The position numbers were made by a program, and so were the translations under genes. A stretch of 64,000 nucleotides of DNA from Candidatus Woesearchaeota archaeon (GTDB lineage: Archaea; Nanobdellota; Nanobdellia; Woesearchaeales; UBA583). The notes beneath the pieces were generated by a model. The model saw only the letters and a list, made by a program, of their open reading frames with translations, did not search any database and was not told where the DNA came from. The first letter of the stretch is position 1. Each line of letters begins with the position of its first letter. Location: NCBI GenBank assembly GCA_965205335.1, contig OZ242164.1:608001-672000 (forward strand), given 5' to 3'. This document shows positions 28,432-57,487 of the stretch, one piece after another.

Positions 28432-28536
28432 AACAAAAGCCAAAAACACCTCTTTTAAAAATATTGCGATTATGAAATAATTATGTACATTCTTAGAATA
28501 TCAAAAGCCTCATAATTTAATAAGATGTTTTACAAG

Positions 28537-29478
28537 TGTGTAGTCGGGTGACATATGTCACCAGTTAAAAAATTCTTTATTTTCCCAATTTCATGAAGAA
28601 ATATGAAATCCGCAAAGAATTTGTTAAGTTAAGAGTGAAGCAATTTTCTTATTCAAAATGTCAGAAAATTTTGAAGAGTAAATTTGATTATAATATTACT
28701 ATTCGTACTTTAAAACGTTGGCAACGCTGTTTTAATAAAGAATCCAATTGGGATTTTTGTGACAACTCTCAAAGACCAAATAAAATCTGGTATAAAGTAA
28801 CCTTGGACATTGAATCTAAAATTATCAATTTAAGAACTGCAACAGGATGGGGAGCTAAAAAGCTCCGTGATTCTTTACATTTAGACTTACATCCAGCCAC
28901 TGTGAATGAAGTTTTGAAACGCAACAATTTAACTAGAAAAGAACATAACAGAGGTCAACGTAAGAAATATGTTCGTTTTCAAAGAAAACATGCAAATTCG
29001 CTTTGGCACATAGATGATAGCGAATTTGGAAAAAAAAGCAAAATAATTGCTGTAGTTGATGATGCTACAAGATATTGTTTAGGAATCTTACAGGTTCCTA
29101 CTGTAACAACTATGGTTGTTACTGAATTTCTTGATAATTTAACTAAGGAGTTTGGAACTCCAACTCAAATAATTAGTGACAATGGTGCTCCCTATGGATT
29201 AAATAGCAAACATTCTAAGTTTGATGTTTGGTGTCGGAGAAGAAAGATTGAACATATTCGGACTAGAGTAAAGAGACCTCAAACAAATGGAAAAGTCGAA
29301 AGACTTTTCGGAACAATTGAGAGAGAAATTAAATATTGTAATGAGGATTTAGAGAAATTTAGAATGAGATATAATCATTTTAGACCTCATGAGAGCTTGT
29401 TTTTACAAACTCCAGCAAATGAATTTTATTCATTTGAAAGAATTTTTTAACTGGTGACATATGTCACCCGACTACACA
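28537..29478 (+). mobile_element. Complete IS481-family insertion sequence (942 bp)
   Basis: 42-bp perfect TIRs beginning TGTGTAGTCGGGTGACATATGTCACC; 15-bp direct repeat AAGATGTTTTACAAG at 28522-28536 and 29479-29493. Confidence 0.95.
28593..29450 (+). CDS. IS481-family DDE transposase
   Basis: WHID, VDDATR, SDNG, PQTNGKVER, YNHFRPHESL. Confidence 0.95.
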   Translation: MKKYEIRKEFVKLRVKQFSYSKCQKILKSKFDYNITIRTLKRWQRCFNKESNWDFCDNSQRPNKIWYKVTLDIESKIINLRTATGWGAKKLRDSLHLDLHPATVNEVLKRNNLTRKEHNRGQRKKYVRFQRKHANSLWHIDDSEFGKKSKIIAVVDDATRYCLGILQVPTVTTMVVTEFLDNLTKEFGTPTQIISDNGAPYGLNSKHSKFDVWCRRRKIEHIRTRVKRPQTNGKVERLFGTIEREIKYCNEDLEKFRMRYNHFRPHESLFLQTPANEFYSFERIF

Positions 29479-29528
29479 AAGATGTTTTACAAGTTATGTT
29501 TATAAATACTTAAATTTGGATTTATAAC

Positions 29529-32500
29529 ATGCATGATGTTAAGAATTTAATTCTAAATTTAGAATCCGATTTAGATGAATTGGAAAAAATAGTCAAGGAG
29601 AAATTAAACCTTTTAACTCAAGTATTCAACACTGATGACTCGGATGTTTTTCTGTCTCTGATAACCAAAGTAAGAGAAATTACAAGCAAAAGAGAATTTG
29701 AAGTTATAAAAGATGGTATAACAGATTTTAATACATTAAAGAATTATTTAACTGCCGACGTTTCATCTAAGCATCTGAAATTAATCAAAGTTCTTCAAAC
29801 AAGGCTCTCAGAATTAAAAGAACTTTTTGAGAATGAAGTATCTCATGAAAATGCTGAACAAAACAAACAAGTAATCATTAGGGAAGTGAGAATCTTAAGA
29901 AATGAATTAGACTTAATACATGATGAAAAAGGCAATCTGAATGAATTAGTTAAATATTTCAATCTACCAACTTCACAAAGAGGAGAAATTTCTGAGGCAG
30001 AACTCAAAGAAAGAGAGTCTTATTTAATAAAATTAGAACTGCCATTAGATAAACTCACTAAATCTCAAATAAATTTTCTGTGTAAGAATGTTTTTGACGT
30101 ATATGCATTAGGGAAGCAAGCAGGAAAAAATGCAGAGGATTTCTATGGATACAGTATTCCTGCAATAGTGAGTTGCATAGAGAAATATCCTGATTTATGG
30201 CCTAAAATAGGGTATGAATTGGTGGAAATGGGGGAAAAGGCAAGAAAAAATGCAAGGTATTTGTATAGAGAAGGAATTCCTGCAATAATGAGTTGTATAG
30301 AAAAATATCCTGATTTATGGCCTAAAATAGGGTATGAATTGGTGGATATGGGAAAAAGGGCAAGAAAAAATGCAAGGTATTTGTATAGAGAAGGAATTCC
30401 TGCAATAGTGAGTTACATAGAAAAACATCCTGATTTATGGCCTAAAATTAGATATGAATTGGTGAAAGTAGGAAAGAAAGCAGGAAAAAATGCAGAGGAT
30501 TTTTATGGATACGGTATTCCCGCAATAATGAGTTGCATAGAAAAATATCCTGATTCATGGCCTAAAATAGGATATGAATTGATGGAAATGGGAAAACAGG
30601 CAGGAAAAAATGCATGGGATTTTTATAAATATGGAGTTCCCGCAATAATGAGTTGCATAGAAAAATATCCTGATTCATGGCCTAAAATTAGATATGAATT
30701 GGTGGAAGTAGGAAAGAAAGTAGGAAAAAATGCAGAGGATTTTTATGGATACGGTATTCCCGCAATAATGAGTTGCATAGAAAAATATCCAGATTTATGG
30801 CCTAAAATAGGGTATGAATTGGTGGATATGGGAAAAAGGGCAAGAAAAAATGCAAGGTATTTTTATGAACATGGAATTTCTGCAATAGTGAGTTACATAG
30901 AAAAATATCCTGATTCATGGCCTAAAATTAGATATGAATTGGTGGATATGGGAAAAAATGCAGAGGATTTTTATGGATACGGTATTCCCGCAATAATGAG
31001 TTGCATGGAAAAATATCCTGATTTATGGCCTAAAATAGGGTATGAATTGGTGGATATGGGAAAACAGACAGGAAAAAATGTAAGGGATTTTTATGAACAT
31101 AGAGTTCCCGCAATAATGAGTTGCATGGAAAAATATCCTGATTTATGGCCCAAAATAGGGTATGAATTGGTGGATATGGGAAAACAGGCAGGAAAAAATG
31201 TAAGGGATTTTTATGAACATGGAGTTCCCGCAATAATGAGTTGCATGGAAAAATATCCTGATTTATGGCCTAAAATAGGGTATGAATTAGTGGATGTGGG
31301 AAAACCGGCAGGAAAAAATGTAAGGGATTTGTATAAATATGGAATTCCTGCAATATTTCCATTTACTAATATAGAAAACCTTAGTTTGATTTTTAGATTC
31401 ATAAAAAACCAAATCCAAGGCTCAAGGAAGAAAATAAAGATTTTATCAAATCTGTCTAAATTCTCTAACTCAGAAGATATAAAATATGTAATCTGGCACT
31501 ATTTAGAATACAAACAAAAATCCCTTTTAGATTTCATATCCAATATCAACTTAGTTACTGAAATAAACTTAATAATAGACTTAAACTGGATATCTTCAAT
31601 TGCAAAGCCACTTAAGTATATGTCTCAAGAAGAAAGAGACTTTATATTCTCAGAAAATCCGAAAACAGGCAATAAATTAATTGAAGATTATTACCTCAAA
31701 CTCTTAGAATTAAATAATAGTTATCCTGATAAGAAAAGAGCCTCCTTTACACGAGCACTATCACAAATTAAAGATATAAAAAACATACCTACTGGTTCTC
31801 TTAACAATTTACAAGAAGTATTCGCAAAAGAACTCATAAATTATTTTGATAATATGCTAAACAGAAAAATTAAAATTAAAATTGGAAATGAATTTGGAAA
31901 AATTGAAATAGACGAAGAAGAACTAAGATCCGAAATTTTCATTGAGGTATATAAGATGTATTTCTCAACGAGCAAAAATAGAGATTATGCTAAGGAACTT
32001 CTTACAGAATACACACATAAAAATTGTTATCCTCACAAATCAAATAAGATATTAAATTGTTACCCATATACTAAGGATAAAAATAAAACTTGGATAGAAG
32101 AGACATTCAGTAATGAACAGAGGGAGATTTGGTTTTCTGAGAACAAAAGAGTGATTACTATTCAAAATTATCAGAATAATAGTTCAACCAACACTTCTGA
32201 GAGGATTTCACACCACTTAAATGATGCCAACTCCATACTTGAAAAATTAGGGTTTGATACATGCACTGATGCAGGAAACCTTATCAATTATTTTAATTCT
32301 ATTGTTAAAAAGAAAGAAAGTGAGATACATGGAAATTTGTTTAATGATTTGAAATTGCAAGTTAATTCAATTTTGAAATTGGTGAGAGATAGAAAAGCCG
32401 TAAAGATTGATGAAATTACAATATACAGAGAACTCAATCCCCTTCGTGTTTTAATGATGGGAAATTGGGTGGTTGGCTCTTGTCTTAGTTATTACAGCAA

Positions 32501-32807
32501 CGCTAAAAATTACTGGTCCTGTTTTACAAATGCCCTTGAAGCAAATAAGGCAGTTTTCTATATAGAATCAGAAAATAGGATTATTGGAAGAGTTTTAGTT
32601 GCAATTGATAATCACAAGAATATAGTTAGATTTCCCCTGTACTATAGTGGAAATATCATAGTTGATTTAAATCCTTATTTTGATGCATATATTACAGATT
32701 TGGCGAAAAAGTGTAGCTTGGGAATTAATGGAAACGTGAGCAATGTCAAATTGTTGTTTTGTGATGAATGGTACTCAGACCTAGAAAGACAAATATATAA
32801 TCTTTGA
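29529..32807 (+). CDS. 1092-aa protein: coiled-coil N-terminus, 40-aa tandem repeats, PcfJ/GNAT-like C-terminal domain
   Basis: Repeat array seen directly; C-terminal LMMGN..GSCL...NALEANK.VFYI..IIGR resembles PcfJ-like domains (from recall). Confidence 0.8.
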   Translation: MHDVKNLILNLESDLDELEKIVKEKLNLLTQVFNTDDSDVFLSLITKVREITSKREFEVIKDGITDFNTLKNYLTADVSSKHLKLIKVLQTRLSELKELFENEVSHENAEQNKQVIIREVRILRNELDLIHDEKGNLNELVKYFNLPTSQRGEISEAELKERESYLIKLELPLDKLTKSQINFLCKNVFDVYALGKQAGKNAEDFYGYSIPAIVSCIEKYPDLWPKIGYELVEMGEKARKNARYLYREGIPAIMSCIEKYPDLWPKIGYELVDMGKRARKNARYLYREGIPAIVSYIEKHPDLWPKIRYELVKVGKKAGKNAEDFYGYGIPAIMSCIEKYPDSWPKIGYELMEMGKQAGKNAWDFYKYGVPAIMSCIEKYPDSWPKIRYELVEVGKKVGKNAEDFYGYGIPAIMSCIEKYPDLWPKIGYELVDMGKRARKNARYFYEHGISAIVSYIEKYPDSWPKIRYELVDMGKNAEDFYGYGIPAIMSCMEKYPDLWPKIGYELVDMGKQTGKNVRDFYEHRVPAIMSCMEKYPDLWPKIGYELVDMGKQAGKNVRDFYEHGVPAIMSCMEKYPDLWPKIGYELVDVGKPAGKNVRDLYKYGIPAIFPFTNIENLSLIFRFIKNQIQGSRKKIKILSNLSKFSNSEDIKYVIWHYLEYKQKSLLDFISNINLVTEINLIIDLNWISSIAKPLKYMSQEERDFIFSENPKTGNKLIEDYYLKLLELNNSYPDKKRASFTRALSQIKDIKNIPTGSLNNLQEVFAKELINYFDNMLNRKIKIKIGNEFGKIEIDEEELRSEIFIEVYKMYFSTSKNRDYAKELLTEYTHKNCYPHKSNKILNCYPYTKDKNKTWIEETFSNEQREIWFSENKRVITIQNYQNNSSTNTSERISHHLNDANSILEKLGFDTCTDAGNLINYFNSIVKKKESEIHGNLFNDLKLQVNSILKLVRDRKAVKIDEITIYRELNPLRVLMMGNWVVGSCLSYYSNAKNYWSCFTNALEANKAVFYIESENRIIGRVLVAIDNHKNIVRFPLYYSGNIIVDLNPYFDAYITDLAKKCSLGINGNVSNVKLLFCDEWYSDLERQIYNL
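30111..31355 (+). repeat. About 10.5 tandem 120-bp coding repeats, one with a 12-bp deletion
   Basis: AAATATCCTGATTTATGGCCTAAAATAGGGTATGAATTGG recurs every 120 bp. Confidence 0.97.
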
Positions 32808-32935
32808 AAATTTGGTAGTGTTCAAAAATTTAATTTACAAATCCTTCAATTATATAAATAACAAAATTACACTTAAAAAAGAACTTTTTAACAAGAAATA
32901 AATCCCCTTAAATCACTAAACACCCTAACTTTTTC

Positions 32936-34858
32936 CTACATTAACTTCTTTAATATTTGAGAAACCAATCTCCCATCAACTGTTCCATTAAATGCCTGCA
33001 TACATTTTCCCATAAGAGCTCCAAAAGGTGCTCCTTTATTATCATCAACTATCTTCCTAATCTTCTCCTCAACTTCTTTCACATCAACACTCTTAACTAA
33101 CAAATCTTTCTTTTCCAAATACTCCTTTAAATTATCAACCTCTGACTTCTTATCCTTATACAAACTTAAAAAAATATCCCTTACTGCCTTTTGATTTAGA
33201 TTATTATCTCTTACTTCCTTTAACAAATCCAAAAGAAGTTCATACTTAAAATCCACAGGCTCAACTCCATCCCTCTTCCTAATATCCTTTGGAATATCAA
33301 ACAAAATTGAATAAAGTGCAGATGCAGACTTCTCTGAAACCTTTAACAACTTATCTACTTCACTCTCAGAATACCTATCAAGAACCTGTGCAACTTTCGA
33401 ACACTCTAAATTCCAATCGTTCTCAATCCTCTTTAACCTCTCACTATACAACTGAGGAACTTCCACACTACTAAGAATATCTGAACTTAACTCAACCTCA
33501 ACAATATCTGTTTCTGGATACATTCTGGCAGCGCCAGGCATAGGTCTTAAAAAATTAGTCACTGTTCCCTTTGAATCCACCCACCTTACCTCACTTGGAA
33601 CTTCCGATATAAGTTCACATATAACTCTCAAAACATTTCTAATACTTTCCTTTGCCAAATCAGAATCATTACTTGCAATCAAAATAAAAGAATCCTTCCC
33701 CTTAATCCCTAGCAATTTTCCAACCTCATTAACTTCTCTTTGCCCAATTCCATAATTAGGCAATTCATCCAAATGAAAAAGCCCTTTAATCTGAGGAAAA
33801 TGCTTCTTATTCCTATCTGAGATTTCCGTTGCGAACCTATAATTCTTTTGCATTTCATGTTTTAAAATACCCCTAAAACCAAACAACTTAATCGCAAAAA
33901 CCTTTGAACCATTTTCCCTTAAATTCTCCCTAATAACCTTAGATTTGCTCTTATCAAAAACTCCTGTTACATCATATATCTTCTTATCTGAAAAATTATG
34001 AGAATTAATTCCTCTATCTCTTAACTCATCAATTATTGAAAGATGAATTTTCTGTCTTCGGACCTCATCACTAATTATATCAGGAATTAACTTCAAGTTC
34101 TGTGCTCCCTTAATCTCAACCCTTGCACCTCCCTTTATTGAAACATTCAAATCCTGCCTTATGGTTCCAAGCCCTCTCTTTACTCTATCAAACGACCTTA
34201 AAACATCCCCAATATGTTTAGCCGCCTCAAAAGCCTGACTTGGGCTATAAATCTGTGGTGCTGTTGTTATCTCAATAAGAGGAATTCCCTGCCTGTCCAG
34301 TGAAAACACACTATGGGCTTCATCTCTCTCAATCACCCTGCATGAATCCTCCTCCAAACTAATTGCATCTATTCCAACACTTCCATCTTTCGTTTCAAAC
34401 TCTCCACCCAATCCAAGAAGTGCTGTTCTCTGAAAACCCGAAGTCACACTCCCATCAACAATTAACTTTCTCATAAAAACAAGTTTATCAAAAAACTTAA
34501 GATTAAACATCTTTGAAACTCCTATTGCAGTTTTCAATGCGCCACAATTAGGACCTTTTGGTGGCTCTTCATCCAAATCAACCAGACATGCATTTACATC
34601 ATTATACTTGTACAAATTATATTTCCCTTTCTTAAACTCCTCAAGAGCCGCCTTATCAACTCCTCCCAACTCTCCCAAAGAAAACCTTAAATTTCTTAAA
34701 ACTTCCTTATCTAATTTCTCATTTGAAACTATTTGCGAAGGGCATTTGCAAAACAATTTCCCAGTATCTAACTGTTGGTGAATTTCAAGCCCGCAAATCA
34801 AACCAAGTTTCTTATAATCCAATTTACTAAGAGTATCCCTTGAAATTAATTTACTCAT
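32936..34858 (-). CDS. gatE: Glu-tRNA(Gln) amidotransferase subunit E
   Basis: GLEIHQQL, DGSVTSGFQRT, LDRQGIPLIEI, GLGTIRQD, RPMPGAARMYPETD. Confidence 0.97.
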   Translation of the reverse strand: MSKLISRDTLSKLDYKKLGLICGLEIHQQLDTGKLFCKCPSQIVSNEKLDKEVLRNLRFSLGELGGVDKAALEEFKKGKYNLYKYNDVNACLVDLDEEPPKGPNCGALKTAIGVSKMFNLKFFDKLVFMRKLIVDGSVTSGFQRTALLGLGGEFETKDGSVGIDAISLEEDSCRVIERDEAHSVFSLDRQGIPLIEITTAPQIYSPSQAFEAAKHIGDVLRSFDRVKRGLGTIRQDLNVSIKGGARVEIKGAQNLKLIPDIISDEVRRQKIHLSIIDELRDRGINSHNFSDKKIYDVTGVFDKSKSKVIRENLRENGSKVFAIKLFGFRGILKHEMQKNYRFATEISDRNKKHFPQIKGLFHLDELPNYGIGQREVNEVGKLLGIKGKDSFILIASNDSDLAKESIRNVLRVICELISEVPSEVRWVDSKGTVTNFLRPMPGAARMYPETDIVEVELSSDILSSVEVPQLYSERLKRIENDWNLECSKVAQVLDRYSESEVDKLLKVSEKSASALYSILFDIPKDIRKRDGVEPVDFKYELLLDLLKEVRDNNLNQKAVRDIFLSLYKDKKSEVDNLKEYLEKKDLLVKSVDVKEVEEKIRKIVDDNKGAPFGALMGKCMQAFNGTVDGRLVSQILKKLM

Positions 34859-41008: not shown

Positions 41009-43585
41009 CTAGCATATGATGGGCAACACACAAGGGCAAATAATTACATCAAAACCATTAGTGCATTGCCAAGAATCGCCAGGAATACTAACACCAGCAA
41101 TTTCTGTTCCTGATATACAGCTACCAAAACTATTACCACATCTCGGTGGAGGAGGAGGAGGAGGTGGAGGACTCACAACACAAGAACCACTAATACAAGT
41201 CCCTGATGAACAATAAGTGCCCGAACAACTTATACTACAGGATTCACAAGAATCAGCATGAGAGCAAGTGCCAGTATATCCTACCGTTTTTCCACATGCT
41301 AAGTTGGAAGGACAAGACACACCACAGGTTCCGCAAGGCTTACCAGCACTACACCGTACTTCCCCACATACACTTCTACAACTCCATTCATATTCTGAAC
41401 AAGAATCAGGTGGATGATAATTATGATCTCCAGAGGAACAGGTGTTTGCACTACTTCCACAACTTGGTATCACATCACAAGGTGGTGGATCACAACTTCC
41501 ACTTGAACACCCATGAGGACAATAAGTTGAAGTTTCACTACAAGAAGAATCTCTTGACTTTGCATAATCTCCATCACACCAAGAACTTGGAGTACAAATT
41601 GGTGGTGCTGGATCACAACTTCCACTTGAACACCCATGAGGACAATAAGTTGAAGTTTCACTACAAGAAGAATCTCTTGACTTTGCATAATCTCCATCAC
41701 ACCAAGAACTTGGAGTACAAGTTGGTGGTGCTGGATCACAACTTCCACTTGAACACCCATAAGGACAATGAGTTGAAGTTACACTACAAGAAGAATCTCT
41801 TGACTTTGCATAATCTCCATCACACCAAGAACTTGGAGTACAAATTGGTGGTGCTGGATCACAACTTCCACTTGAACACCCATGAGGACAATAAGTTGAA
41901 GTTTCACTACAAGAAGAATCTCTTGACTTTGCATAATCTCCATCACACCAAGAACTTGGAGTACAAGTTGGTGGTGCTGGATCACAACTTCCACTTGAAC
42001 ACCCATAAGGACAATGAGTTGAAGTTACACTACAAGAAGAATCTCTTGACTTTGCATAATCTCCATCACACCAAGAACTTGGAGTACAAGTTGGTGGACA
42101 GGAACCACCGACACAAGTCCCAGATGAACAATAAGTGCCTGTTCCTGAACAAATATAATCACAGGAGTTTCCATTACCAGAGCAAGTGCCTGGCACAATC
42201 CCTAATGGACTTGTTCCACAAGTAACACTTGATGGGGATTTACATGTCTCACCTGCATTCTTCCAACAGGTTCCACAGGAAGGAGGTGGAGGTGGACTCA
42301 CAACACAAAAACCACTAACACAAGTCCCAGATGAACAGTAGGTACCTGTTCCTGGACAACTTCTAGTGCAGGAGTTTCCAGTACAAGAGTAGGTACCTGA
42401 TGGGTCTGGTATTGGACTTCCACATAATACACCTGATTTGGAAGCACATGATGGTGCACTACATGTATTAGCAGTACATGAATTACTCTTACAACAACCT
42501 GATAGACAATTGGTACCTGTGCCGACGCAGGTCTTGGTACAGTTTGCACCACTAATGGAGCAAATGCCAGATACATATGGCATTGAAGTCCCACATGATA
42601 CACTGGAAGGAGGATCACAAGTCCCGACACAAGTTCCACAAAGTATTGGTACACAACTACTACCATCACAAATATATGATGAATATGAACATTTGGTGCC
42701 TGTTCCTGGACAAGTTCTAGTGCAGGAGTTTCCAGTATTAGAGCAAGTGCCAGATACAGCTGGTATTGAAGTTCCACATGATACACCGGAAGGAGAAGAA
42801 CAAGTCCCTTGACAGGTTCCACACAGTTTTGCCTTACTACACATACCCGAATTATTTCCCCCATTCAAACCATCACAACGCCATCTGTAGTGGGTGGGGG
42901 TGTCAGTATACGCTCCACCGTTAGATGTCCCACTTGTACAGCCATTTCTTACCGCATTATTGCATATTCCATTCACAGGAGTAGAAGGGATTAATTTGCT
43001 ACACATACTTGAGTTAGTTCCACCATTAACTCCACTGCAATACCATATATGATGAGTTGAATTGGAAGAGGAGTTGTAAATGTTACCAATAATACAAGTG
43101 TCTTTACCCGAACCGCATACGCCATCTTCAGCAGGGAAAGAAATAAAATTTCTACAGCAAAAAGATCCCATTTTGTCATCATCACTGCTATTAAAATTTG
43201 GATCTAATCTGAATCCATAAATGTCATATTCCCCTGAACCAACCTTTGTCCAGCTAGAAGGACAAACTATGCCCCTCGTCCAAGTACAGACTCCCTTTTC
43301 ACACCTCCCTCCAACTTGGGCATCAACGTAATCTTTATTAACTGCATCACTTCCATTTATCGGAGTTGGAACATCAGTTATCTTGCCAGAATCTCTCAAA
43401 CTCAATGTACTGTTTAAAATAAAATCAGGAGAACCTTCGTCACTTCCTAAAACCCCTCCTCTTACGTCAGAGGCATTATGCCAAACACTGTTTGTATCCG
43501 CAAAAACAAGAACTTCTATCCCCGTAAGAACAAAAAGAATGGCAAAAATACTAATAAAAATTCCAAATAAATTTCTTCTAATCAT
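41009..43585 (-). CDS. Secreted Cys/Ser/Gly/Pro-rich repeat surface protein (adhesin-like)
   Basis: Signal-like N-terminus, ITDVPTP..DAVNKDYVD neck-like motif, many Cys modules, poly-Pro linkers. Confidence 0.85.
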   Translation of the reverse strand: MIRRNLFGIFISIFAILFVLTGIEVLVFADTNSVWHNASDVRGGVLGSDEGSPDFILNSTLSLRDSGKITDVPTPINGSDAVNKDYVDAQVGGRCEKGVCTWTRGIVCPSSWTKVGSGEYDIYGFRLDPNFNSSDDDKMGSFCCRNFISFPAEDGVCGSGKDTCIIGNIYNSSSNSTHHIWYCSGVNGGTNSSMCSKLIPSTPVNGICNNAVRNGCTSGTSNGGAYTDTPTHYRWRCDGLNGGNNSGMCSKAKLCGTCQGTCSSPSGVSCGTSIPAVSGTCSNTGNSCTRTCPGTGTKCSYSSYICDGSSCVPILCGTCVGTCDPPSSVSCGTSMPYVSGICSISGANCTKTCVGTGTNCLSGCCKSNSCTANTCSAPSCASKSGVLCGSPIPDPSGTYSCTGNSCTRSCPGTGTYCSSGTCVSGFCVVSPPPPPSCGTCWKNAGETCKSPSSVTCGTSPLGIVPGTCSGNGNSCDYICSGTGTYCSSGTCVGGSCPPTCTPSSWCDGDYAKSRDSSCSVTSTHCPYGCSSGSCDPAPPTCTPSSWCDGDYAKSRDSSCSETSTYCPHGCSSGSCDPAPPICTPSSWCDGDYAKSRDSSCSVTSTHCPYGCSSGSCDPAPPTCTPSSWCDGDYAKSRDSSCSETSTYCPHGCSSGSCDPAPPICTPSSWCDGDYAKSRDSSCSETSTYCPHGCSSGSCDPPPCDVIPSCGSSANTCSSGDHNYHPPDSCSEYEWSCRSVCGEVRCSAGKPCGTCGVSCPSNLACGKTVGYTGTCSHADSCESCSISCSGTYCSSGTCISGSCVVSPPPPPPPPPRCGNSFGSCISGTEIAGVSIPGDSWQCTNGFDVIICPCVLPIIC
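41484..42096 (-). repeat. Five tandem 123-bp (41-aa) near-identical coding repeats
   Basis: GGATCACAACTTCCACTTGAACACCC at 41487, 41610, 41733, 41856 and 41979. Confidence 0.97.
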
Positions 43586-47475: not shown

Positions 47476-49590
47476 TTAATATCGGTTGCTAAATAATCTT
47501 ATGATATAATCTCTCGATTTTTTATGTGGCTTATATTTTTTTAAATGTTTATACAAACTTGGATTAATTGCTTCTTTCACTGCATTACGACTCTTCCCTA
47601 ACACAAATATTTTATGAACTTTTTGGAGATTTCTCAAACCTAAAAGGATTACATTCAAAGCATACAAATCACGATCAACTTCTTCGAGTCTTTCCAAATC
47701 TAAAGAGGTTGCACTACTAGCATCCAAATCACGACCAACTTTTTTGAGTATTCTCAAATTTAAAATGGTTGCACTACTAGCATCCAACTTACCACCAACC
47801 TCTTGGAGACTTAGTAGAGATAGATGAGAGGTTGCACTACGAGCATCCAAATTACTACCAACTGTTTCGAGTTTTTCCAATTTTAAAGAGGTTGCACTAC
47901 CAACATCCAAATTACCACCAACTTTTTGGAGATTTCTCAAATTTGAAAAGGTTGCACTATGAGCATCCAAATTACCACCAACTTCTTCGAGTCCTTCCAA
48001 TTCTAAAAGGGTTACACTATGAGCATCCAAATTACCACTAACCTCTTCGAGACTTGGTAAATATAGAGAGGTTGTACTATGAGCATCCAAATTACCACCA
48101 ACCTTTTGGAGTATTCCCAATTTTAAAGAGGTTGCACTACCAACATCCAAATTACCACCAATTGATTTAAGTTCCTTATATGAAAAAACTTCTCCCTGTG
48201 ATTTATCAGTAATACTACCCTTAATTTCCTCAATTATACCTTTTCTATCATCACTCAGCCATGTAAAATCAAAAATAATCCCTGAATATGATAAGAACTT
48301 CTTAAATACCTCATAATTTCTATCATTAACAGCAAGTTTTCCTTTAATTATAAAGTCTCTCTCATCTAACTCTGAAACACTAACTATCCCTCTCTGTGTC
48401 AGGAATTCATTATCTTTAAGTTTAATATTAACAAAATCTTCTTCTATCTTATTAATATTTTTCTTATTAATCAAATTTTTAAGAAAACTAAGAAATGCTT
48501 TATAATACTCCTCATCACCTTTTAATAAAGTATCTTTCACTTCCTTAATCTGTTGGATCTTCCCATTTACTATATCATATTTTATTATTAATACAATAGT
48601 GTCATCAGATCTTCTAAATAAATATTCCTCATGTTTAATTAATTTCTTAGATTGTTGCTCTAAATGAGGTTCTGAGACCAATTTAACTAATTTATAACCG
48701 TTATCTTCAAATAAAACAACTTCTGGATGAGCATATCTAGGTTCTAATATATCCTCATTTGTTTTATTTTCATAAAATTTTAAAACACTTTTGATGTCTA
48801 TTGAGAGAGTGTCTAAAAATCCTCCATTTACTTCTGGACTCGTTTCATATTCTTCAATTGCATCGCATAATGTTGAAACGTTTATGCCAGTGGGAGGAAA
48901 TTTAGAATTAATAAATCCTGAGAGTTTTACCCTTAAAAGATATTTCTGCTTAGCATCTAATTCATCAAAACCTCTCTTGACCAAACCTTGCTCAACATCA
49001 GCAGCGATGCGGTTAACATCAGCAACGATGCGGTCAACATCAGCAACGATGCGGTTAACATTAGCAATGATGCGGTCAACATCAGCAGCGGTGATATCTA
49101 AATCCTTATTTTTATTATCTCGTGTTGTAATCTTACGTGACCGAAAACGAGATAAAAAACTCCCAGATATGGTTTTTTCTTTATTACCATTTAAACCTGA
49201 CGTCTTAAAAAGGTTGTCTTTAAAATACTTGCTCAATTCAATAATTTCCTCTGCGTAAACTTGAATTTTATTTTCTAAATCAACCTTTTTTGCTTCATCC
49301 TCCTTACTATATAATGAAACGAGATACCTAATACGGACATTTAAAAAGTTGATAAGTTCTTCTTGGGGTTTACGGTCTATTTTCTCGGAAACTTTATTTG
49401 CTATATCTATTAAGTAAGTTAAGTTTCCATGTAATTCATCCTTTTTCTCAATAAACCCATGTAAGTGAGATTTATCAAACTGAGATAATAATTTAGTATC
49501 AAGTTTCTGAAATCTATCTAAAATTATCTTAAATTCGCGAAGCTTCTTTTTTAACTCATATAACACTAAATCAATATTAAGCCCAAGCAT
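47476..49590 (-). CDS. 704-aa protein: coiled-coil N-terminus, degenerate PcfJ-like domain, 20-aa LRR/receptor-L-like repeats
   Basis: LxxVGGNLDAxSATxLxLxx repeats and ADVDRI heptads. Confidence 0.8.
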   Translation of the reverse strand: MLGLNIDLVLYELKKKLREFKIILDRFQKLDTKLLSQFDKSHLHGFIEKKDELHGNLTYLIDIANKVSEKIDRKPQEELINFLNVRIRYLVSLYSKEDEAKKVDLENKIQVYAEEIIELSKYFKDNLFKTSGLNGNKEKTISGSFLSRFRSRKITTRDNKNKDLDITAADVDRIIANVNRIVADVDRIVADVNRIAADVEQGLVKRGFDELDAKQKYLLRVKLSGFINSKFPPTGINVSTLCDAIEEYETSPEVNGGFLDTLSIDIKSVLKFYENKTNEDILEPRYAHPEVVLFEDNGYKLVKLVSEPHLEQQSKKLIKHEEYLFRRSDDTIVLIIKYDIVNGKIQQIKEVKDTLLKGDEEYYKAFLSFLKNLINKKNINKIEEDFVNIKLKDNEFLTQRGIVSVSELDERDFIIKGKLAVNDRNYEVFKKFLSYSGIIFDFTWLSDDRKGIIEEIKGSITDKSQGEVFSYKELKSIGGNLDVGSATSLKLGILQKVGGNLDAHSTTSLYLPSLEEVSGNLDAHSVTLLELEGLEEVGGNLDAHSATFSNLRNLQKVGGNLDVGSATSLKLEKLETVGSNLDARSATSHLSLLSLQEVGGKLDASSATILNLRILKKVGRDLDASSATSLDLERLEEVDRDLYALNVILLGLRNLQKVHKIFVLGKSRNAVKEAINPSLYKHLKKYKPHKKSRDYIIRLFSNRY
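47611..48172 (-). repeat. About 9.5 tandem 60-bp coding repeats
   Basis: GGTTGCACTA..AGCATCCAAATTACCACCAAC recurs at 60-bp period; one unit is 63 bp. Confidence 0.95.
48995..49090 (-). repeat. About 4.5 tandem 21-bp coding repeats (ADVDRI[IVA] heptads)
   Basis: AACATCAGCAACGATGCGGT(C/T) repeated. Confidence 0.9.
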
Positions 49591-56672: not shown

Positions 56673-57487
56673 GGTTCTGTTCAATTTGAGAGGGATATAT
56701 AATTTTTATAACAAAATATAAAAAGACTAAGTCAATATTATTTGGAGTAACGGGATTATTATTTTTAGGAGGTTGTGAACCACAAACAAAAGGGGAACAA
56801 GTTTTTGAAAGTAGAGGCTCTAATATTACTGATGGGAAAGCAATGATTTATGAGGAAGATGGAAACATAGAACAACCTGAAGACTTGGAGAACAAACAAA
56901 ATAAGGAAGAAAAAGAAAAAATATATTATGATGATTATGGAAATGTTGAAAGAGTAGAATATGGAATATTTAATAGGTATGGAGAATTAGAAGGAGAAGG
57001 AAATATAACATATTACTATGAGAATGGAAATATAAAGGAAGTAAGAGAAGGAACATTTAAAGATGGTTATATTGAAGGAGTAAAAATAACAAAATACTAT
57101 GAGAATGGAAATATATTGTATGTAGGAGAAAGAGCATTTTATGGGTTTGAAAAATTAAGTGGAGAAGGAATAAGTACGTATTATTATAAGAATGGAAATA
57201 AAATGGAAGTAATAGAAGTAGCATTAAATATATTTGGAGGCTTAGAAGGAGAAGGAAAAGTAACAGTTTACTATGAGAATGGAAATATAAAGAAAGTAAT
57301 AGAAGGAACATTAAGAGGTGGAGCATTATCAAAAAGAGGAGATGGTAAGGGTACACTTTATGATGAAGATGGGAATATGATGATGTTTAAGGAATATAGA
57401 AAGGGGATATTAATTAATGAAACAAATTATTAATAAAGATATATTCTGGGAGTTAATTATTAACTACCCCTAAAAACAACCAGTACC
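56673..57487 (+). mobile_element. Transposase-less passenger-gene cassette
   Basis: Degenerate inverted ends GGTTCTG.../...CAGTACC (15/23 match), flanked by (T)GTGTTCAA; G-rich against the local C-rich skew. Confidence 0.6.
56699..57433 (+). CDS. MORN-variant (YwqK-like) repeat protein with lipoprotein signal
   Basis: YYENGNIK repeats; the frame is open upstream of ATG 56843 through KKTKSILFGVTGLLFLGGC; only ATA/ATT start candidates, so the start is uncertain. Confidence 0.7.
   Translation: MIFITKYKKTKSILFGVTGLLFLGGCEPQTKGEQVFESRGSNITDGKAMIYEEDGNIEQPEDLENKQNKEEKEKIYYDDYGNVERVEYGIFNRYGELEGEGNITYYYENGNIKEVREGTFKDGYIEGVKITKYYENGNILYVGERAFYGFEKLSGEGISTYYYKNGNKMEVIEVALNIFGGLEGEGKVTVYYENGNIKKVIEGTLRGGALSKRGDGKGTLYDEDGNMMMFKEYRKGILINETNY

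Follow-up and report, generated by a model that had tools for sequence, protein, structure and literature searches.

What does a tandem repeat protein bind when its units keep changing at the same few positions, and on what does the enzyme-like domain behind the repeats act? The question is raised by a gene in a 64,000-nucleotide (nt) stretch of DNA from a Candidatus Woesearchaeota archaeon (assembly GCA_965205335.1, contig OZ242164.1, positions 608,001 to 672,000; hereafter, the window). The gene (29529-32807, + strand) is an intact open reading frame (ORF) of 1092 amino acids (aa) that a genome scan finds in a single copy; the genome itself is a single contig of 1.2 Mb with 31% G+C. An earlier note, made from the sequence alone, had read the product as a modular binding solenoid that aims a PcfJ/GNAT-like C-terminal domain, possibly through a code of the TALE, PPR or PUF type. 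That interpretation is partly supported, and the observation on which it was built is partly confirmed: a predicted solenoid, a diversifying face and a predicted GNAT-like fold are all found, and neither the assignment to PcfJ nor the code is upheld. With about an even chance of being right, we propose that the protein represents a polymorphic binder-plus-enzyme family of DPANN archaea (found also in Gracilibacteria and Omnitrophota) in which the binder brings a modifying enzyme to a protein, most likely one of the host. Neither the repeat nor the enzyme family, nor the use of the two in DPANN archaea, appears to have been described, in that the literature covered, from which subscription papers were mostly absent, yielded no description of the repeat-plus-enzyme family; the general design, a variable repeat binder joined to an exchangeable enzyme, is already known from parasite effectors and polymorphic toxins. 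The gene is organized as follows.

29529..32807, + strand: whole gene, comprising an N-terminal helical region, the repeat array, a conserved helical middle and a GNAT-like C-terminal domain
29529..30125, + strand: N-terminal region (aa 1-199), helical in the model at low confidence
30126..31355, + strand: repeat array (aa 200-609) of two-helix hairpin units
30126, 30246, 30366, 30486, 30606, 30726, 30846 (36 aa), 30954, 31074, 31194 and 31314 (partial), + strand: unit starts
31356..32405, + strand: helical middle region (aa 610-959), conserved alongside the C-terminal domain family-wide
32406..32804, + strand: GNAT-like fold (aa ~960-1092) with near-invariant residues and without acetyl-CoA motif A
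32481..32483, + strand: codon of Cys985, a candidate nucleophile or metal ligand

A mosaic array with a conserved variable patch

The array is detected as a 120-bp tandem repeat at 30120-31355 (10.4 copies, score 1563). The earlier note counted 11 units on a near-constant scaffold; in fact, there are ten full units (nine of 40 aa and one of 36) and a partial eleventh of 14 aa that is followed by unique sequence, whereas the list of dipeptides at unit positions 4-5 and 8-9 was exact for all 11 units. The pairs run ED/GY, RY/RE, RY/RE, ED/GY, WD/KY and ED/GY in the first six units and RY/EH, ED/GY, RD/EH, RD/EH and RD/KY in units 7-11. They are drawn from a small set, as claimed, but are not freely combined, ED being paired with GY in 4/4 cases and only 6 distinct combinations being present in 11 units. 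The scaffold is far from constant: 22/40 unit positions vary, and positions 38 (1.89 bits) and 34 (1.30) match positions 8 (1.94), 9 (1.44) and 4 (1.32) in variability; position 5 (0.85 bits) shows variability no higher than that of several scaffold positions of this array. The variable patch in the window array consists of positions 4, 5, 8 and 9 plus 34 and 38.

The recent shuffling of near-identical DNA units that had been suggested holds for the mosaicism, with 93 of the 171 informative site pairs failing the four-gamete test, a count to which recurrent mutation could add; the failures are rarer for close sites (permutation p 0.03). Only some units are near-identical, the pairwise differences spanning 2-22/105 nt. 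The array is no obvious assembly artefact because no two units share the same sequence, the reading frame is unbroken, and contigs from public runs match both array ends and some inner junctions; these runs represent one sample, possibly the source itself, and no piece spans the array, so the unit order is without independent confirmation. The small share of run X4 and its loose end at 30490 were set aside in this comparison, and no RNA holder of the sequence was listed.

In a single-sequence model (predicted local distance difference test, pLDDT, about 60-80 for the larger part of the array), each unit forms two helices, and the units stack into the two-helix alpha-solenoid that is typical of HEAT-like repeats. 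The model matches HEAT/ARM-type solenoids, with a best Z of 16.0 (root-mean-square deviation, rmsd, 9.3; 354 aligned) and a next best of 15.8 (rmsd 7.7; 280 aligned); high rmsd values are usual for solenoid matches. The top match, 7XVK, is a Phytophthora modular effector, a likeness that is possibly generic to solenoids (8% identity, rmsd 9.3). As the earlier note stated, positions 4, 5, 8 and 9 lie on one face of helix A, on the side that points away from the conserved core (mean angles on the helical wheel, 110 vs 310 degrees, with helix limits taken from the single-sequence model); they occupy the start of this helix, and positions 34 and 38, beside them in sequence, occupy the end of helix B. 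No HEAT profile of Pfam or NCBIfam matches the repeat protein, no credible family for it was found in Pfam, NCBIfam, PHROGs or PADLOC, and none of the solved structures matches it in sequence. The scores for FYRC, HofC and phrog_504 turned out to be summed weak repeat pieces with 0 passing stretches, and these candidates were rejected.

The same patch recurs in relatives. A search with the C-terminal part gave 329 representatives at E<=0.001; the homologue analysis covered the best 150 of them. Nine homologous arrays were anchored by hand. Positions 4, 5, 8 and 9 were more variable than the rest in 9/9 of them (permutation p<0.05 in 7/9) and exceeded the remaining exposed positions of their helix in 8/9, but with a bias: part of the comparison positions is held constant by the anchors, two arrays are closely related and one unit is mis-anchored. 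When the test was repeated on 36 further proteins (19 of which, with <3 units caught, were not scored), these positions varied above 12 pattern-free positions in 17/17 arrays; positions 1 and 2 vary equally in this test, which extends the patch beyond four sites, and positions 12 and 16 also vary moderately. Arrays with different scaffolds keep the same patch. Across the variable sites, 19 residue types are represented, with 19-20% Tyr, 29-37% F/W/Y/H and a balance of basic and acidic residues; net charge is neutral in 6/6 arrays measured, and the units of the homologous arrays are 34-46 aa long, with irregular lengths inside single arrays.

The earlier note also called for a comparison of arrays across strains, and between close relatives both the number and the content of the units indeed change. 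The proteins P0092 and P0171, both encoded on long contigs, are 90% identical overall, a value that rises to 98% over the first 55 aa and the last 520 aa; 65/73 differences fall within aa 57-232, and the dipeptide sets differ in 5/5 units. Three near-identical pairs, P0055/P0155, P0180/P0221 and P0187/P0192, are exactly one unit apart, and in two other close pairs and several cluster members the arrays are unchanged.

C-terminal domains and their exchange

The C-terminal 537 aa were modelled from a 128-sequence alignment (pLDDT 87.8). For aa ~960-1092, the solved-structure matches include many GNATs (Z 6-7 and rmsd about 3 over about 105 aligned residues), and the Foldseek list is GNAT-fold throughout, with no row at E<=0.001; the GNAT alpha/beta fold is recognizable from these matches, each of them moderate, and the weak rows include the GNAT-fold aminoacyl transferases FemX and ATE1. 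No specific fold match was obtained for the middle region (aa 610-959). The near-invariant residues are E968, P971, M977, C985, N1001, N1006, K1007, R1021, Y1038, W1081 and Y1082, with Cys accounting for 118/120 aligned residues at the column of Cys985. The domain is likely an enzyme.

The GNAT-like fold, the conserved Cys and the presence of PcfJ-like phage proteins in the viral structure list, where such models recur at weak E values of 0.005-0.27, are points of likeness to PcfJ (PF14284) and the GNAT superfamily, which for PcfJ amount to a resemblance only; the PcfJ feature score of 0.86 does not decide the matter. PcfJ also adjoins variable modules, namely, a 20-aa repeat protein in this genome and, according to PMC5758913, targets of retroelements in the candidate phyla radiation (CPR), where PcfJ-like motifs precede the retroelement-diversified gene regions. 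In contrast to these groups, the window domain lacks motif A and falls below any PF14284 score, with no match of this profile to the repeat protein and no significant hhalign match to the single PcfJ sequence of the genome. No phage match to the C-terminal domain was found. The genome encodes two paralogues in which a helical N-terminus is combined with a PcfJ domain and 20-aa leucine-rich repeat (LRR)-like repeats with variable positions (window 47479-49590, - strand, and G000:C1:44871-47300, - strand); the latter copy is over the PF14284 cut-off, and the window copy has lost both the His-Cys motif and the match. A search for relatives of the PcfJ protein of this genome returned only itself.

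A search with the repeat region of a relative retrieved 39 proteins, and a profile of the window's own unit recovered 32/36 new proteins at E<0.001 (a small set). Only 5/39 repeat-sharing proteins carry the C-terminus of the window protein; by eye and by profile, the others were assigned to a second Cys-bearing type (14+1), a third type (3), kinase-like domains (6; P0186, P0195, P0203, P0204, P0207 and P0183) and another domain (3), the remaining 7 being something else or apparently cut. P0027 and P0185 are 94% identical over the first 90 aa and 18% over the last 150 aa, and P0197 shares 73% with the kinase-like P0183 N-terminally vs 20% C-terminally; N-terminus, array and C-terminus have thus been recombined as modules. 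The other Cys-bearing types are treated as separate from that of the window protein because the hhalign comparisons with it were not significant; B and D were the only types with a mutual match (hhalign probability 92%). Type F was guessed by eye to be an ADP-ribosyltransferase, a candidate dropped when no match was found. A ~130-aa N-terminal domain common to P0181, P0186, P0199, P0053, P0046, P0025, L012 and L023 sits on at least 4 different C-terminal types and is a candidate Woesearchaeota export signal; it was not found in the source genome. A genome scan that used only P0027 as query gave no matches.

Among 45 named loci, the closest hits are mostly from Woesearchaeota/Nanoarchaeota, the others including Gracilibacteria, an Omnitrophota giant ORF and uncultured Methanosarcinales; Armatimonadota, Verrucomicrobiota and Acidobacteriota contribute more distant loci. 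The distribution is patchy, with 20/401 genomes of the order (source genome and G350 included) and 1/19 congeners positive, counts that refer to incomplete genomes, and no neighbour family is common to >2/45 loci. The Omnitrophota locus (L024:1-12471) has the C-terminal domain embedded in a reading frame of at least 4157 aa. In 21/149 homologues (P0005, P0006, P0009 and others), Trp is present where the family has Gly, apparently a sign of TGA=Gly genes translated with TGA=Trp, that is, of Gracilibacteria-type members and mistranslated database entries.

What the array may bind

The scenario that we favour is the following. The 40-aa units would stack into a HEAT-like alpha-solenoid in which positions 4, 5, 8 and 9 (helix A start) together with 34 and 38 (the adjoining helix B end) would make up one continuous surface, rewritten by point change, unit gain or loss and inter-unit exchange in the manner of a natural alphaRep library. 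This surface would grip a folded protein and keep it near the C-terminal GNAT-like domain, which would modify the target, most likely by Cys-dependent acyl or aminoacyl transfer; in relatives, the GNAT-like end would be replaced by other domains, kinase-like ones included. The target would most likely be a protein of the host cell on which these archaea live.

The components of this scenario differ in strength. That the ligand of the array is a protein is quite probable: the alphaRep-type spacing, the broad, Tyr-rich and balanced alphabet, the neutral arrays and the irregular unit lengths suit a surface for proteins better than a base code. The activity and chemistry assigned to the C-terminal enzyme are tentative, and delivery to a host target without a signal peptide falls just short of even; the observations fit a viral protein as target as well as a host one.

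alphaRep units are 31 aa long, whereas those of the window family measure 34-46 aa, have no HEAT match in Pfam, are naturally fused to enzymes and are shuffled in genomes. According to PMC3754942, alphaRep varies at positions 18, 19, 22, 23, 26 and 30 and binds proteins through its concave face; the likeness lies in the two-helix solenoid, the variable pairs at i,i+1 and i+4,i+5 with more at i+8 and i+12, and the Tyr-rich variable surface.

The LRR-ligase and ankyrin effectors of bacterial and oomycete parasites are also repeat-plus-enzyme proteins. The window family resembles them in that a variable repeat array would aim an interchangeable enzyme in host-dependent organisms, and differs in being archaeal/CPR, with no sequence homology and no known secretion system or host target. 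Exchangeable C-termini on shared N-terminal parts, a feature of polymorphic toxins, are found in the repeat family as well, and the conserved N-terminal part, exchangeable C-terminal enzymes and patchy spread agree with the description of these toxins in PMC6393860. Unlike them, the window gene lacks an adjacent immunity gene, an orphan cassette and a known delivery domain, and in its family a hypervariable binder lies between the two ends.

Several findings weigh against the binder-plus-enzyme reading. The C-terminal domain is present also in bacteria not known as symbionts, and clear repeats are found in only 17/90 homologues of 600 aa or more (mostly helical units of 30-46 aa, two of them of beta-type look). 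The single-unit differences between near-identical proteins can be assembly collapses, and the pN/pS (nonsynonymous over synonymous polymorphism) ratio of 1.73 at positions 4, 5, 8 and 9 vs 0.44 elsewhere in the window array is a circular measure because the sites were chosen for varying. The GNAT matches are individually weak (none at E<=0.001, Z under 8), and acetyl-CoA motif A, for which we assumed the pattern R/Q-x-x-G-x-G/A, is absent in 75/75 scorable homologues of the 150, so the domain is not likely to be a canonical acetyl-CoA acetyltransferase. The kinase-like label comes from motifs and one sub-threshold Pfam match (WaaY, E 0.0014); no solved kinase is matched by the kinase-like domain, and His takes the place of what we presume to be the catalytic Asp in 6/6 of these domains, which, by sequence, could form an atypical kinase or pseudokinase family. 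Finally, the N-terminus of the repeat protein matches neither the domain shared by relatives nor other proteins of the genome and contains no signal peptide, and no export route is identified for this reason.

Of the alternatives, an immune sensor-effector that acts inside the cell fares best, although it remains unlikely; here, the solenoid would recognize a viral protein and switch on a toxic C-terminal enzyme, resulting in abortive infection. The absence of a signal peptide, the patchy presence without conserved neighbours, the fast-changing binding face and the interchangeable enzyme ends all fit such a system, GNAT toxins and kinases act as defence effectors, and the solenoid matches include the defence protein Avs4, if only at rank 38. 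However, no PADLOC family matches the repeat protein at E<=0.01, the neighbours are housekeeping genes and not a defence island, and there is neither a nucleotide-binding switch domain nor a candidate antitoxin.

Neutral or structural expansion, in which a pre-existing hairpin was amplified by slippage, the exposed sites drift and the array serves as a spacer for the enzyme, is improbable. It has to contend with the excess variation of positions 4, 5, 8 and 9 over the rest of the exposed positions in their helix in 8/9 arrays, with the P0092/P0171 pair, where change is confined to the array and the flanks are 98% identical, and with the retention of the patch across arrays with different scaffolds, even if the single degenerate copy of the unit in the closest homologue, the many long homologues without clear repeats, the abundance of unrelated young repeats in the genome and the fact that exposed sites always vary above buried ones all speak for it.

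Also improbable is a reading in which a linear polymer is recognized step by step, each unit being responsible for either 1-2 residues of an extended peptide or one base. If true, the order of units would be a rewritable address that aims an interchangeable enzyme, and DPANN archaea would own a naturally programmable modifying-enzyme platform that is delivered into hosts.

The TALE/PPR/PUF-like code suggested by the earlier note, with each unit reading one base via its dipeptides and aiming a base- or tRNA-modifying GNAT-like enzyme, is very unlikely: despite the tandem two-helix units of similar size with a few variable positions and recent shuffling, the small dipeptide set within the window array, the basic loop that adjoins the variable patch in the units of the window protein, the existence of GNAT-fold enzymes that modify nucleic acids and the TAL-effector clusters in a feature search (0.77-0.78, below the 0.9 lead threshold and within the shuffled-protein range), the TALE (PF03377), PPR and PUF profiles of Pfam give no match at E<=1, the arrays are neutral (6/6) with irregular unit lengths, the variable sites accept 19 residue types, many large and hydrophobic, relatives do not retain the basic loop, kinase-like domains occur as fusions to the same repeat, and no TALE, PPR or PUF entry appears among the 50 structural matches listed for the array, an absence that is not decisive in itself. 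TALE units, moreover, are of uniform length with one variable diresidue in the inter-helix loop, whereas the window units carry two pairs inside helix A and those of relatives are irregular (34-46 aa).

Little is known of the ways in which DPANN archaea affect their hosts, and a fast-changing binder with a swappable enzyme has the look of a host-manipulation or immune arsenal. The arrays could be used as bait for host or viral targets, near-identical strain pairs could point to specificity-setting residues, and the family amounts to a naturally made collection of alphaRep-like binders whose 34-46-aa scaffold is new, with an uncharacterised Cys-bearing GNAT-like enzyme family as an additional yield.

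The locus and other repeat genes

Two features lie upstream of the gene.

29499..29506, + strand: putative archaeal TATA-like box, 23-30 nt upstream of the start codon
28537..29478, + strand: IS481-like insertion sequence (transposase 28593-29450), a neighbour outside the gene

The insertion sequence, which we take to be of the IS481 family, is bounded by perfect terminal inverted repeats of 42 nt and flanked by a target duplication of 15 nt, and leaves the TATA-like box intact. The duplication is unusually long (14-15 nt in 3/4 scored copies), and >10 related transposase copies are present in the genome. On the 3' side, the repeat gene is convergent with gatE; the neighbours, read by eye as GatE, EF-1alpha, S10 and L18e, are housekeeping genes, with no defence island. 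Like the named relatives, they suggest a DPANN archaeon of the Woesearchaeota type. The lysA-gatE adjacency was seen in 0/19 congeners within the ~1.5 kb examined, a region with little sequence in two of them. One contig, 86% alike, connects position 28472 directly with 32942, its shorter side covering only 53 letters, a weak hint in the sequence of a relative without both the insertion sequence and the repeat gene.

For the N-terminus (aa 1-199), no signal peptide or membrane helix is predicted, and no homologue was detected in the genome or among the homologues compared. The last ~40 aa of this region resemble, by eye, the cap that precedes the array in relatives; a search with the cap pattern did not match it. 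An N-terminal export motif common with the 20-aa-repeat proteins of the genome looked plausible by eye and was rejected when their profile missed the repeat protein. The repeat protein has no paralogue in the genome.

Other repeats are present nearby and elsewhere in this genome. Two further cytoplasmic-type proteins (G000:C1:18066-19706 and 32465-33364, both - strand) carry young repeats of 32-34 aa and 33 aa, respectively, with a few variable positions. Within the window, a degenerate 87-bp tandem repeat, MORN-like by eye, occupies 56963-57319, and an 858-aa secreted-type protein (41012-43585, - strand) contains five 41-aa Cys-rich repeats with no Pfam match; the N-terminus of the latter is common to at least 2 other genes of the genome.

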